Shown: positions 39,625 to 52,645, numbered from the stretch's first letter. The stretch: 64,000 bases of DNA from Candidatus Uhrbacteria bacterium (GCA_026395055.1 JAPLZK010000002.1:256154-320153), one strand, 5' to 3'. The notes: generated by a model from the sequence alone, not told the origin. Numbers and translations are program-made.

Positions 39625-39715
39625 GTGTCATTGCGAGGAGGAGTCTTCGACGACGAAGCAATCTTGCAGAGCATGTCGAAAAGATTGCTTCGTCGTGGAA
39701 CTCCTCGCAATGACA
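39625..39715. repeat. palindromic repeat, family A copy 1 (gtgtcattgcgaggag...cgacgacgaagcaatc...gattgcttcgtcg...ctcctcgcaatgaca)
   Basis: About 90-bp near-perfect hairpin; second copy (about 90% identical) at 52556-52645. Both sit between adjacent same-strand sugar-pathway genes. Confidence 0.7.
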
Positions 39716-40912
39716 ATGCGTATGTCTACATCCTCACCAAAAATCGCCCAAGTTGTTTGTACCTATCCTCCGTATCATGGCGGGATGGGCAAGGTTGCGT
39801 TTGAATATACAGAGCGATTGCGTGCGCGAGGATATAACGTTCATGTGTTTACCTCGCAAATGGAGAATCCCCTCCTTGCCAAGGAGGGGGCAGGGGGTGG
39901 TCGCGATCCAGAGTATATCCACCGTATTCCCGCAATCCTCTCGATTGGAAATGCAGGCGTGATGCCATCTTTGTTTAATCGACTAAAAGGATTTGATCTT
40001 GTTCATGTTCATTATCCATTTTTTGGTGGGGCAGAACCCGTGATCGTTCGAAAAGCATTGAGACATGATCAGGGGCTTGTGATGACGTACCACATGGATG
40101 CGGTTGCAACCGGTTTTCGAGGAGCGATCTTTGAGGCACACAAACAAGTGTTGTTTCCTTGGATTGCAAATCGTTGTGATCGCATTCTCGTGAGTTCAAA
40201 AGATTATTATGAATCGTCTGCACTTGCGAAGTTGGATTCGGTAAAAGATCGTGTAGAGATTCATCCGTTTGGTGTTGATCTGAAAACATTTTCTCCCGGT
40301 GTTGAAGAAGACTTGCAGATGCAACTCGGTATCTCGAAGACAGTTCCGGTTCTCCTCTTTGTTGGTGGTCTCGATCGTGCACACCACTTTAAAGGTTTAC
40401 CCGTTCTGCTCGAGTCGCTGAAAGATCTTTCTCAACCATTTCATTTGGTCGTCGTTGGAAGCGGTGATTTGAAAGCAACGTATGAAGTGTTGGTGCGCAT
40501 GCATCATCTTGAAACACGCGTGACGTTTGTGGGCAGTGTCTCAAACGAAGATTTGCCAAGATATTACGCACTGGCAGATGTGTTTGTGTTTCCTTCTGTG
40601 CGACGTGCAGAAGCATTCGGACTCGTAGCTCTCGAAGCCGCCGCATGTGGTGTTCCAACCATTGCATCGAGTCTTCCCGGCGTTCGATCTGTTGTTCTCG
40701 ACGGGGATACGGGGTTACTTGTGACACCTGAAGATGTTGGTGCGCTTCGAGGCGCAATCGAACTTTTACTGACACGCACAGATCTGCGTGAACAGCTCGG
40801 ACGTTCTGCGCGATTGCATGCAGAAGCACACTTTAGTTGGGAGCCGCTCATGACACAGCTTGAAGCGACCTATAAATCTGTTCTCGAACAACAGTCAAAA
40901 AGAGAATATTAA
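39710..40912 (+). CDS. glycosyltransferase family 4
   Basis: Start chosen after repeat A (the track's N-terminal extension runs through the repeat); ...YPPYHGGMGKVAFEYTERLRARGYNVHVFT...; C-terminal E-x7-E (EAFGLVALEAAACGVPTIAS). Confidence 0.65.
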   Translation: MTMRMSTSSPKIAQVVCTYPPYHGGMGKVAFEYTERLRARGYNVHVFTSQMENPLLAKEGAGGGRDPEYIHRIPAILSIGNAGVMPSLFNRLKGFDLVHVHYPFFGGAEPVIVRKALRHDQGLVMTYHMDAVATGFRGAIFEAHKQVLFPWIANRCDRILVSSKDYYESSALAKLDSVKDRVEIHPFGVDLKTFSPGVEEDLQMQLGISKTVPVLLFVGGLDRAHHFKGLPVLLESLKDLSQPFHLVVVGSGDLKATYEVLVRMHHLETRVTFVGSVSNEDLPRYYALADVFVFPSVRRAEAFGLVALEAAACGVPTIASSLPGVRSVVLDGDTGLLVTPEDVGALRGAIELLLTRTDLREQLGRSARLHAEAHFSWEPLMTQLEATYKSVLEQQSKREY

Positions 40913-40913
40913 T

Positions 40914-42116
40914 ATGCGCATTGGGATTATTTCCAATTTGTATCCTCCACATGAGCGTGGGGGAGCGGAATTGATCGCGCGACGTGTTGCAGACGAGTTT
41001 GCATTACGCGGTCATTCTGTAACCGTGCTTACGACTCAGCCGTATTCCGGTTGGGAAAGTTTGTTGTTGCGTTTACAAGAAAAACACATTGAACGTATTT
41101 ATCGATTCCACCCCATGAATCTTTTTGGAATCGAGAATATTGGAAAGAAACCATTTCTCTGGCGATTGTTGTGGCACGCGATCGACGCGTTGAGCCTTGG
41201 AGTTCGATCGATTATTCATCGCTGGATTCTTGAGGAACAACCAGAGGTTATTTTCACACACAACCTAAAAGGCATCGGGCTCTCAATTGGGCGTGTGATT
41301 CAAGAAACGGGCATTCAACACATTCATACGTTGCATGATGTTCAGTTGACGGTTCCAAGCGGACTTCTCATGTGGAAACACGAACAGTCTTTTTTGAATC
41401 GATCGTTTTTGCGTCGTTGGTATGAAGCGCTCTCGCAATGGGCAATTGGGAAACCAAACGTGGTGATCTCGCCATCGAAGTTTTTGCTCGACCTACACGT
41501 CTCACGAGGTTTTTTTTCCGAAACAAAAACGTGCGTCCTTCCAAATCCAGCTCCACCCGTTTTGGTGCCGCACCGCATGTCCGAGCGTTCCGGTCCGATT
41601 CGATTTCTTTTTGCCGGACAGCTCGAGGAGCATAAGGGAATTTTATTTATCTTGCATGTGTTGAACACACTCGAGATTCCATTCGAGTTGCATATTGCTG
41701 GAGAGGGAAGTTTACGAAAAGAAATTGAAGAGCGTTGCGGACGTGATCCACGACTCATGTTTCATGGGTTCGTTGCTCTTGACCCCATGTTGAAGTTGAT
41801 TGCCGCGATGGACGCCGTGATTGTCCCTTCGCTTTGTTACGAGAATTCCCCAACCATCATTTACGAAAGTTTTGCGGTTGGAACTCCGGTGATCGCGTCA
41901 AAGATTGGCGGAATCCCTGAGCTTATCGTGGAAGGCGAGAATGGATGTACGTTTGAGCCGGGGAATGAGAAGTCGTTTCTCGAGGCGCTTGCGCATATCA
42001 CAAATGATCCGAGTGTGTGTTGGGCAAAAGCGGAGCGGATTCGAGAGATCGCCGAACAGTATGCGTTGAAAGGGTATGTGGACGCGATTGAAAAAATGAT
42101 TCCATCTGTGAAATAA
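40914..42116 (+). CDS. glycosyltransferase family 4
   Basis: MRIGIISNLYPPHERGGAELIARRVADEFALRGHSV...; C-terminal ...YENSPTIIYESFAVGTPVIASKIGGIPELIVEGENG. Confidence 0.7.
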   Translation: MRIGIISNLYPPHERGGAELIARRVADEFALRGHSVTVLTTQPYSGWESLLLRLQEKHIERIYRFHPMNLFGIENIGKKPFLWRLLWHAIDALSLGVRSIIHRWILEEQPEVIFTHNLKGIGLSIGRVIQETGIQHIHTLHDVQLTVPSGLLMWKHEQSFLNRSFLRRWYEALSQWAIGKPNVVISPSKFLLDLHVSRGFFSETKTCVLPNPAPPVLVPHRMSERSGPIRFLFAGQLEEHKGILFILHVLNTLEIPFELHIAGEGSLRKEIEERCGRDPRLMFHGFVALDPMLKLIAAMDAVIVPSLCYENSPTIIYESFAVGTPVIASKIGGIPELIVEGENGCTFEPGNEKSFLEALAHITNDPSVCWAKAERIREIAEQYALKGYVDAIEKMIPSVK

Positions 42117-42120
42117 TTCT

Positions 42121-51465: not shown

Positions 51466-51530
51466 GATGCCACAACGTGAGGGAAAAGATTGCTTCGGTC
51501 GTCGAGCTCTCTCGCAATGACACTATTTCT

Positions 51531-52547
51531 ATGAAAATCATCATCACAGGTGGGGCGGGGTTCATGGGGTCTAACATGATCCGATACCTCTTACGTACAT
51601 ATAAGGATGTCGAAGTCGTGAACTTTGATGATTTAACGTACGCGGGAAATCTTTCCAACTTATCGGATCTTGATCTGGATCCACGTTATTCTTTTGTAAA
51701 AGGAAACATCTCGAAACGCGAAGATGTTGAAGCATTGCTCTCGAAAGGGGCAGACGTTCTTATCAATTACGCCGCTGAGACCCATGTTGATCGCTCTATT
51801 CTAGATCCAGACGCATTTGTGCAAACAAACGTGATGGGGGTTCATAACCTTCTTGAGGCTGTTCGCAAATTTAGCATTCCACGCTATGTGCAAATCTCAA
51901 CGGACGAAGTTTATGGCGCGGTGATGGAAGGGGAGTCAGACGAACAATCTCGTTTTGAACCAAGAAGTCCGTATGCGGCTTCTAAAGCTGCGGGAGATTT
52001 ATTGTGTCACGCATCCGCCGTTACGTTTGGAACGCCTGTGATTGTCACGCACTCGGTGAATTTTTATGGGCCGTATCAATTTCCTGAAAAGTTGATTCCA
52101 CTTTTTACAACCAACTTATTTGATGGAAAAAAAGTTCCTGTGTACGGCGATGGCTTGCAAGTTCGCGAGTGGATTTTCACAGAAGATCATTGTCGTGCGA
52201 TCGACCTCATTGCCCAAAAAGGAAACATTGGCGAAGCGTACAATATTGGAACCGGGCATCGCATGCCAAACATCGAACTCATTCAACAGTTGTTGAAGCA
52301 TACGGGTCGAGATGAATCGTCTCTCGAATATGTCCTTGATCGTCCAGGACACGACAGACGTTACGCTCTGAATAGTCAAAAGCTTCGCACAGAACTTGGC
52401 TGGGAACCCAAGATGCGTTTCGAGGAAGGAATCGCACAGACCATCGAATGGTATAAACAACATCCAGAATGGATCGCGAACTGTAAGTCTGGAGCCTACA
52501 AAGATTATTACGAGTCGCAGTATAAACATAAAGGACACAGCGTTTAA
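51531..52547 (+). CDS. rmlB: dTDP-glucose 4,6-dehydratase
   Basis: MKIIITGGAGFMGSNMIRYLL..., YAASKAAGD catalytic YxxxK, characteristic C-terminal region (...RPGHDRRYALNSQKLRTELGWEP). Confidence 0.8.
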   Translation: MKIIITGGAGFMGSNMIRYLLRTYKDVEVVNFDDLTYAGNLSNLSDLDLDPRYSFVKGNISKREDVEALLSKGADVLINYAAETHVDRSILDPDAFVQTNVMGVHNLLEAVRKFSIPRYVQISTDEVYGAVMEGESDEQSRFEPRSPYAASKAAGDLLCHASAVTFGTPVIVTHSVNFYGPYQFPEKLIPLFTTNLFDGKKVPVYGDGLQVREWIFTEDHCRAIDLIAQKGNIGEAYNIGTGHRMPNIELIQQLLKHTGRDESSLEYVLDRPGHDRRYALNSQKLRTELGWEPKMRFEEGIAQTIEWYKQHPEWIANCKSGAYKDYYESQYKHKGHSV

Positions 52548-52555
52548 CTTTTACT

Positions 52556-52645
52556 GTGTCATTGCGAGGAGGGGTTATCGACGACGAAGCAATCTGGCAC
52601 TCGTGTCGAAAAGATTGCTTTGTCGTCGAACTCCTCGCAATGACA
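52556..52645. repeat. palindromic repeat, family A copy 2
   Basis: gtgtcattgcgaggaggggttatcgacgacgaagcaatc...gattgctttgtcgtcgaactcctcgcaatgaca; about 90% identical to 39625-39715. Confidence 0.7.

Follow-up and report, generated by a model that had tools for sequence, protein, structure and literature searches.

What kind of element are the two palindromes of about 90 bp that lie inside sugar-nucleotide and glycosyltransferase operons of a Candidatus Uhrbacteria bacterium, and does it move? We addressed this question in a stretch of 64,000 nucleotides from this organism (GCA_026395055.1, JAPLZK010000002.1:256154-320153), called the window below. One palindrome (site A, 39625-39715) separates the genes of a GT2 and a GT4 glycosyltransferase and the other (site B, 52556-52645) those of an RmlB-like and an RmlD-like enzyme, a placement that an earlier note on this DNA had made and that Pfam matches bear out. 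Each palindrome is most probably a head-to-head (HH) dimer of two repetitive extragenic palindromic (REP) units of ~35 nt that belong to the CGTC-tagged super-family (Di Nocera, De Gregorio & Rocco 2013, BMC Genomics 14:522; PMC3733652), here in its TGTC form.

Structure of the palindromes and their units

The palindromes were found as the earlier note had described them. In a global alignment 81 of 91 positions were identical (89%), and folding predicted a single long RNA hairpin, a near-perfect palindrome, at each site. Each of the four arms contains the 14-mer GTCATTGCGAGGAG once, and these are all its occurrences in the window, compared to 0.4 expected; none of 100 shuffles reached this count. 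The predicted free energy at site A was -58.5 kcal/mol for the plus strand (z = -9.4) and -52.9 kcal/mol for the minus strand, and at site B it was -56.1 kcal/mol (z = -11.2) and -50.4 kcal/mol, so that in both copies the sense (plus) strand folds better than the antisense strand by ~5.6 kcal/mol.

Homology between the copies starts and stops exactly at TGTC...GACA; the ends read TGTCATTGCGAG... and the few bases outside them differ from copy to copy. Each arm has the layout of a unit: a YGTC tag that stays unpaired is followed by the basal stem ATTGC...GCAAT, which encloses an interior that is variable or rich in G and A, and by a C(T/C)N tail. The spacer between the units forms the loop of the long hairpin, and its 3' part at site A, TCGAAAA, is common to site B and to both copies in L363, a locus from a relative. 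The right unit of site B carries one G-to-A change in a stem half (CAAAGCAAT), which becomes a G-U pair in the plus-strand RNA. Because the two units of a dimer are near-identical and inverted in the lineage of the window, the whole dimer can fold as one long hairpin in single-stranded DNA or RNA, and this arm-to-arm hairpin is the energetically dominant structure there.

A half-element scan of the window revealed two units in addition to the two palindromes: a solo unit upstream of rmlB (51488-51522) and a variant unit (12722-12749), the latter differing at 2 of 22 positions from a unit in another Patescibacteria genome (L129). All five ATTGC-type arms of the window, and the variant unit as well, start with TGTC. 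The earlier note had allowed that the palindromes might exist in only two copies, and this is clearly not the case, given the further units in the window and a very large family outside it. What might pass for terminal inverted repeats are simply two REP units in head-to-head order, and single units occur too.

We built sequence logos on 889 distinct units. Across copies the conserved order was (C/T)GTC, AT plus three bases, GAG, a variable interior, CGAAG, the complement of the three bases plus AT, and C(C/T)N. The base before GTC was T in 58% and C in 34% of units from low-GC loci, while in high-GC loci it was C in 72%. The tail read C-T(73%)-C(51%) in low-GC and C-C(73%)-A(68%)-G(57%) in high-GC loci, and CTT or CTG in the window. 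The stem variants ATCCC/GGGAT, ATCTC/GAGAT, ATTTC/GAAAT and ATCCT/AGGAT all preserve AT...AT, as does the ATTGC...GCAAT stem of the window.

Support for this stem came from a covariation test, in which we collected candidates with YGTCAT-NNN followed by NNN-ATCC within 40 nt and excluded the ATTGC type that had been used for locus collection. The two triplets were complementary in 102 of 539 candidates, compared to 8.4 expected, and these comprised 19 triplet types; in the shuffled control the proportion was 4 of 219.

Among the metagenome loci, 76 HH, 15 tail-to-tail (TT) and 6 head-to-tail (HT) dimers were found along with 93 solo units, and an earlier set of loci held 220 HH dimers and 210 solo arms. 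Dimers often combine two types of arm, a long one (GAGGAG...CGACGAAGC) with a short one (GAGCGAAGCGAAGC), and in many copies the interior has a small hairpin of its own that is different between the arms. These differences indicate that the single unit is a structural entity in addition to the 90-bp hairpin.

Larger arrangements were also seen. Two IMG/VR contigs (L078, 3054-3438; L114, 4417-4801) each carry three REP dimers in tandem with a spacing of 156-157 nt, and three identical dimers lie inside a larger repeat in L325.

Distribution of the repeats

To search other genomes we used the dimer pattern CATTGCGAG-N(5-30)-GAAGCAATC-N(5-30)-GATTGCTTY, which corresponds to the left arm and the start of the inverted right arm. 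It matched 113 stretches in IMG/VR viral contigs and at least 120 in GTDB species representatives. By record title, the hosts among the GTDB matches listed include many Bradyrhizobium and other Hyphomicrobiales, Sphingomonadales, Rickettsiales (Ca. Tisiphia), Micavibrio and Acetobacteraceae; also Patescibacteria (L127 and L129), Chloroflexi, Zixibacteria, Ignavibacteriota, Bacteroidales and Sphingobacterium; and further Nostoc, Spirochaetaceae, Planctomycetales, Binatia, Moduliflexus and one gammaproteobacterium. A stricter pattern, built for a single arm after the copies of the window, matched at least 120 metagenome stretches with a GC content of 28-69%. The elements in the window belong to a very large repeat family that spans many phyla.

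The genomic surroundings of the units are diverse. In viral contigs, REP units occur throughout prophage clusters or clusters resembling gene transfer agents (GTAs). The 147 open reading frames (ORFs) adjacent to REPs in low-GC loci of other genomes contained 174 different Pfam families, none of them enriched, and the best-represented family had four members.

Turnover at gene junctions in related genomes

The RmlD-like protein of the window has relatives that are 98-90% identical, one of them from Candidatus Uhrbacteria bacterium RIFCSPHIGHO2_02_FULL_47_44, and these relatives provided both filled and empty versions of the same junctions. Site B is empty in L236-238 (92% RmlD identity) and L239-241 (90%), where the rmlB stop codon overlaps the rmlD start codon in GTATGA (...AGCGTATGAAAAT...), and the window has ~110 bases more. 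Site A is likewise empty in L236-238, which read ...GGTGGTAATTATGTCC..., the window being ~106 bases longer. At a third junction, upstream of rmlB (site C), L236 has 12 nt between the genes while the window and L239/L240 have one solo unit each. A fourth (site D), between convergent genes and past the terminator of a T2SSE gene, holds a dimer in L363 and is empty in the window and in L239. No target-site duplication was found in any of these four filled/empty comparisons. The density of units among relatives ranged from none in ~21 kb (L236) to five or six in ~21 kb (L363).

Occupied junctions do not all hold the same unit types, and the rmlB/rmlD junction is a hot spot in this respect. There the window has an ATTGC/ATTGC dimer, L242 (98% RmlD identity) an ATCCC unit with a degenerate partner, L363 (91%) an ATTGC heterodimer of a long and a short arm, and L364 (74%) ATCTC together with ATTTC. 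Empty sites in close relatives and different stem variants at one junction show that the elements turn over quickly. At site C the units of the window and L239 have their flanks and the interior core TCGACGA(C/G)CCGA(A/G)G in common, and their basal stems differ by compensating changes, ATTGC/GCAAT in the window and ATCCC/GGGAT in L239/L240. The pentamer GACAC that is present at site C in L236 could be an excision scar or target sequence.

On the other hand, the dimer at site A of the window and that at site D of L363, two unrelated loci, differ at only ~3 arm positions and both have the long arm first. Such near-identical dimers at non-homologous loci in related genomes point to the copying of whole dimers. 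In this Uhrbacteria-like lineage the occupancy of gene junctions thus changes between close relatives, through gain or loss of elements or the replacement of one by another. The patterns at the sites agree with each of these three processes, and single events are not assignable among them.

Search for a mobilizing gene

We looked for a gene that might mobilize the units in the window and in the fetched loci, a scope from which a single-copy gene elsewhere in the genomes would escape. None of the 48 window proteins scanned had a transposase domain, and neither the window nor any fetched locus held an ORF resembling a REP-associated tyrosine transposase (RAYT). tblastn with IS200 TnpA and E. coli RAYT queries gave no match in 2.09 Mb of loci. 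Where inverted arms at a distance of 250-3000 bp enclosed ORFs, these were ordinary genes (phage portal, capsid, rmlB) and did not form a recurring family. Clustering of the ORFs close to hairpins in viral contigs gave no recurrent genes other than structural genes of phages or GTAs, and no ORF family recurred between or beside arms in 2.75 Mb. An integrase core domain (rve_3) was present in two of the 147 REP-adjacent ORFs.

A link to small GIY-YIG (COG2827) genes was also considered and was dropped, as a regular expression and tblastn with two query sequences, in part idealized, returned nothing in 2.09 Mb.

Evidence against the assignment and alternative explanations

Several observations weigh against the view that these are mobile REPs of the CGTC type. 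The CGTC families are described with stems of 8-9 bp and loops of 4-5 nt (PMC3733652), whereas here five Watson-Crick pairs enclose an interior of 12-27 nt: 19-27 nt in the window units and 12 nt in the commonest form of the family. The same survey gives aberrant loop lengths for CGTC-1 of Bradyrhizobium and allows that bulged units may have escaped it. No ATTGC string occurs in the supplements of that paper; the ATTGCGAG...CGAAGCAAT type may still be one of those given there as CGTC-1 to CGTC-4. Single arms of the ATTGC type fold no better than shuffles (z about 0 with nearest-neighbor DNA parameters, in models that ignore sheared G-A pairs), so the unit stem rests on covariation and not on predicted stability. 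Long and short arms showed no bias in their orientation relative to transcription (11 versus 8, by ORF heuristics noisy enough to misclassify site B of the window and one L363 site).

Further doubts concern movement. The searches revealed no mobilizing enzyme at these loci. This is weak evidence that there is none, since a single-copy gene elsewhere in a genome would have escaped them, and it agrees with the published statement that CGTC repeats are not associated with transposase genes (PMC3733652). Since no such enzyme was found, the term "mobile" rests on patterns of presence and absence, and deletion or gene conversion between copies could yield these as well. All filled alleles of site B have a GTTTAA stop and a short AT-rich spacer in common. 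The spacer may therefore be older than the REP, and the overlap in ATGA may have arisen secondarily by deletion.

Four other explanations were weighed against the REP dimer. The elements could be classical miniature inverted-repeat transposable elements (MITEs), that is, deletion derivatives of a DDE-type insertion sequence (IS) that have terminal inverted repeats, leave target-site duplications and are moved by the parent IS. The size of ~90 bp, the palindromic ends and the intergenic location fit superficially, and the two integrase domains at other loci could be counted in favor, but there is no flanking direct repeat in the four comparisons, homology ends exactly at the tags, half-elements occur alone, arms are often of different unit types, and neither a recurring ORF family nor a transposase domain turned up in the material searched. 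We regard a MITE in this sense as highly improbable. The description of the elements as "MITE/REP-like mobile or recombinogenic" in the earlier note thus holds as "REP-like mobile or recombinogenic", given family size, turnover and hallmarks, and is not supported for a MITE in the strict sense. Even less can be said for a duplicated intrinsic transcription terminator. A strong, GC-containing hairpin between genes would suit one; however, neither strand has a T-run behind the hairpin, as an intrinsic terminator would, and the T8 run at site A lies before the hairpin. In addition, a terminator scan was silent at the sites, the elements are internal to operons whose genes overlap or abut in relatives, and the dimer in L363 lies downstream of a separate, conventional terminator. 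The probability of this explanation is close to nil.

A dedicated cis-regulatory RNA, which selection in sugar-nucleotide and glycosyltransferase operons would have shaped as an attenuator, a processing site or a hairpin bound by protein, would account for the location of both dimers and the solo unit in operons for cell-envelope sugars, no more than 10 nt from the stop and the next start codon, and for the better folding of the sense strand. Relatives whose enzymes are 90-92% identical nevertheless have the same operon without the element, and other relatives have unrelated stem variants at the same junction. The lack of any enriched family among the neighbors and of an Rfam match, together with units past a terminator between convergent genes and across prophage or GTA-like clusters, makes such a selected role very unlikely. 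A similarly small chance is given to the right unit being coding, like the Rickettsia palindromic elements, with ATGACA supplying an in-frame start and a short extension (MTMR- or MTKRI-). The ATG in the right unit of each site is in frame with the downstream gene with no stop between, gene calls of public RmlD homologues begin with REP-derived peptides (P0004, P0007, P0011 and P0068; MTKL-, MTDDF-, ...LLAMTKHS-, MGTLRLLAMTKHS- and ...SSLEMTKT-), and intragenic CGTC REPs are documented (PMC3733652). Yet most homologues begin MKIL, and the ATG is base-paired in the hairpin stem and has no Shine-Dalgarno-like sequence before it. The recurrence of in-frame ATGs is better understood as an ascertainment effect, because gene callers extend only those genes in which the element is in frame.

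Possible mechanism and effects on operon expression

If the palindromes are REP dimers, the best guess by analogy is that they are selfish or near-neutral, non-autonomous DNA that spreads in trans. The mobilizing enzyme would recognize the tag and the hairpin when the DNA is single-stranded, in the manner of the RAYT/IS200-type HUH transposases that act on GTAG REPs, and an insert would be tolerated within an operon because it folds away as a hairpin. That CGTC/TGTC REP dimers are currently mobile in RAYT-free Candidate Phyla Radiation (CPR) genomes of ~1 Mb, copied by a small, possibly universal host function that acts on tag and hairpin in single-stranded DNA or by an unrecognized enzyme, seems to us unlikely. 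If it were true, such an enzyme could be identified because the organisms have so few genes, and either outcome would settle how this REP super-family spreads across at least a dozen phyla. Their small size makes CPR genomes a good setting in which to look for whatever copies CGTC-type REPs.

Effects on RNA can be proposed from the REPs of E. coli. These hairpins protect upstream mRNA from exonucleases and can attenuate transcription, and where a REP lies less than 16 nt from a stop codon, the terminating ribosome stalls and expression of the upstream gene falls (PMC12306157, citing Newbury 1987, Espeli 2001 and Liang, Rudd and Deutscher 2015). By the same logic the transcribed hairpin in the window may block 3'-5' exonucleases and so stabilize the upstream cistron. 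The first paired base lies 10 nt past the GT2 stop at site A and 9 nt past the rmlB stop at site B, and at such a distance the hairpin might stall terminating ribosomes, which would be rescued by transfer-messenger RNA (tmRNA). REP hairpins near stop codons are reported to set off trans-translation, and a tmRNA gene is encoded in the window (433-823, plus strand; Rfam RF00023, 111 bits), so the rescue pathway is present. The roles of attenuator, processing site and stabilizing hairpin raised by the earlier note are plausible on this analogy with E. coli.

The last paired base lies 6 nt before the GT4 start codon at site A and 9 nt before that of rmlD at site B. Where relatives have no element, the start codon of the downstream gene overlaps or directly adjoins the stop codon of the gene before it, and GGTGG or AAGGA precedes this start. 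The hairpin may thus break or weaken a translational coupling that is suggested by these overlapping codons. The insert moves GGTGG or AAGGA and the stop codon ~100 nt away, so translation of the downstream gene is probably uncoupled or reduced, unless the hairpin keeps the codons close. By bringing the upstream stop and the downstream start to within ~16-20 nt of each other, the hairpin might also explain why translationally coupled junctions tolerate perfectly palindromic dimers. Since the insertions split gene pairs that overlap in relatives, the lineage offers natural filled and empty alleles with which the effects of intercistronic hairpins on operon expression can be studied.

Flanking genes, annotation and other features of the window

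The coordinates of the repeat units and of the genes beside the two dimers are collected in Table 1.

Table 1. Repeat units in the window and the genes that flank the two dimers.
Feature	Coordinates	Strand	Remarks
Variant single unit	12722-12749	+	TGTC-ATCCT-AAACGAAGTGA-AGGAT-CTC; intergenic gap
GT2 glycosyltransferase gene	38548-39615	+	Pfam; stop TAA 39613-39615
Site A, left REP unit	39626-39665	+	TGTC tag 39626-39629
Site A, left unit basal stem	39630-39634 and 39657-39661		ATTGC ... GCAAT; tail CTT(G)
Site A, spacer between units	39666-39680		loop of the long hairpin
Site A, right REP unit, inverted	39681-39715	-	minus strand reads TGTCATTGCGAGGAGTTCCACGACGAAGCAATCTT; holds ATG 39710, in frame with the downstream gene
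GT4 glycosyltransferase gene	39722-40912	+	true start ATG 39722, aligned to element-free relatives
Solo REP unit	51488-51522	-	minus strand reads TGTCATTGCGAGAGAGCTCGACGACCGAAGCAATCTT; between a NUDIX gene and rmlB
RmlB-like NDP-sugar 4,6-dehydratase gene	51531-52547	+	338 aa as in homologues; stop TAA 52545-52547
Site B, left REP unit	52557-52596	+	TGTC tag 52557-52560
Site B, right REP unit, inverted	52611-52645	-	ATG 52640 in frame with rmlD
RmlD_sub_bind (3,5-epimerase/4-reductase-like) gene	52655-53512	+	285 aa; Pfam

The repeats disturb gene prediction. The mechanically called ORFs 39623-40912 and 52556-53512 cross the elements and both contain the peptide CRKDCFVVELLAMT, and a third, 51477-52547, runs through the solo unit upstream of the true rmlB ATG. 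These N-terminal extensions are artifacts, given the lengths of the RmlD-like and RmlB-like homologues (285 and 338 aa) and the starts that relatives place at 39722, 51531 and 52655. The earlier note had likewise taken the shared peptide as spurious. The REP-derived starts of public RmlD-like proteins from related CPR bacteria show that the junction is occupied and mis-annotated in several lineages. False extensions such as ...CRKDCFVVELLAMT on RmlB-, RmlD- and GT4-like proteins corrupt gene calls both here and in public databases.

Assembly is affected as well. Two Logan contigs, from SRR20698644 (L001, 8579-8670) and SRR20698643 (L002, 1352-1443), contain an identical rmlB and element, and these independent short-read assemblies stop at the same base inside the right arm. 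The palindromic repeats thus break short-read assemblies, as would be expected of a repeated palindrome.

The window holds other repeats and gene arrangements apart from the REP units. A GC-rich island at ~6000-15000 (57-60% GC, compared to 42-47% elsewhere) has many internal DNA repeats and encodes Cys-rich proteins with MopE-type "putative metal-binding" repeats (PF11617; 10810-12627 and 12793-14463). Its long minus-strand ORFs (6229-7791, 8080-9054 and 9537-10652) have no Pfam match and may be spurious. The GC-rich genes are also flanked by two other families of short repeats, one G-rich, of the GAGGGGTAAGGGGTTAGGGG type and present in both orientations, and one a promoter-like CCCTTGACAAA...TGGTAT motif; the coordinates of the two are 7854-7920, 10682-10708, 10747-10782 and 14936-14975, and also 354-382, 7920-7948, 9304-9332 and 18985-19011. 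An AT-rich palindromic family, AAAGCACCAAA..ATAAAA..TTCCAAATTCCAAA and its complement, is present at 4938-5014 and 59022-59111, the second copy between convergent genes; its sequence is unrelated to the REP units.

Among the genes, one for an NTP_transferase (sugar-1-phosphate nucleotidyltransferase-like; 57986-59025) is represented by two overlapping ORFs in different frames, one at 57986-58681 (231 aa) and the other at 58636-59025 (129 aa, LbH domain). Its relatives are a single protein of 360 aa, and the split in the window reflects either a frameshift or a sequence error, or it marks a pseudogene. Tandem paralogous pairs encode two PP2C phosphatases (53585-54400 and 54451-55401) and two S8 subtilases with FG-GAP repeats (32690-34801 and 34789-36381), and these pairs share the DNA repeats D18, D5 and D11.

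Comparison with known repeat systems

The family was found in the literature through the name of its tag, as searches with raw sequence or with the artifact peptides gave nothing relevant. The literature search found no paper that links REPs with Patescibacteria and none on the mobilization of CGTC REPs. At the gathering threshold, no Rfam family matched the element, and in the window only the tmRNA passed; a permissive scan of the element gave only generic hairpin (miRNA precursor) models at 10-22 bits, compared to thresholds of 40-114.

With MITEs and the palindrome-associated elements derived from IS200/IS605, the palindromes share that they are small, non-coding, structured and repeated, and that they are polymorphic for presence and absence. 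Unlike MITEs, they have no target-site duplication and no parent IS, their units also occur singly, and their arms are often of different types. The resemblance to the GTAG REPs of E. coli, Pseudomonas and Stenotrophomonas, with their bacterial interspersed mosaic elements (BIMEs) and REP doublets forming hairpins (REPINs), includes a 4-nt tag beside a hairpin, inverted doublets that are apparently copied as one, intergenic location and, by analogy, effects on mRNA stability, on attenuation of transcription and, within 15 nt of a stop codon, on translation. In contrast to the GTAG type, the tag is YGTC and no RAYT or other Y1 gene lies beside any examined copy.

The likeness is with the CGTC super-family. 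As described in the survey (PMC3733652), CGTC REPs have an unpaired terminal CGTC, with TGTC or CCTC as variants, AT at the first two stem positions and short, unpaired tails that are mostly CCA-like. The units form chiefly HH dimers, which fold separately or as one large stem-loop, while TT dimers are rare and HT dimers negligible. They sit mainly between unidirectional and convergent ORFs near the 3' end of the upstream ORF, and family sizes vary several-fold between related strains. Neisseria dRS3 and Rickettsia RPE-4 and RPE-6 are counted as members. The window family resembles these repeats in its YGTC tag, its A-T and T-A first pairs, its short tail, the predominance of HH dimers and the lack of an associated transposase. 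It also resembles them in its location between co-directional or convergent genes near the upstream stop, in a family size that varies between related strains, and in the occurrence of different REPs at one site in related genomes.

The elements are real but essentially ordinary, with relevance for annotation and assembly and a modest biological interest. That interest is chiefly that of a tractable setting in which to ask how CGTC-type REPs spread, and it extends to their fast turnover, which includes different stem variants at one junction among close relatives, and to their hosts. The survey records CGTC repeats from five phyla, Proteobacteria, Chlorobi, Bacteroidetes, Spirochaetes and Thermotogae (PMC3733652). 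Our data extend this REP super-family, which has no known transposase, to the CPR and several other phyla, since the hosts found here beyond those five include Patescibacteria/CPR, Chloroflexi, Zixibacteria, Cyanobacteria, Planctomycetes and Binatia. The elements of the window are thus most probably CGTC-type REPs from a host phylum that earlier lists of these repeats lack, and their stem format may not have been catalogued before.

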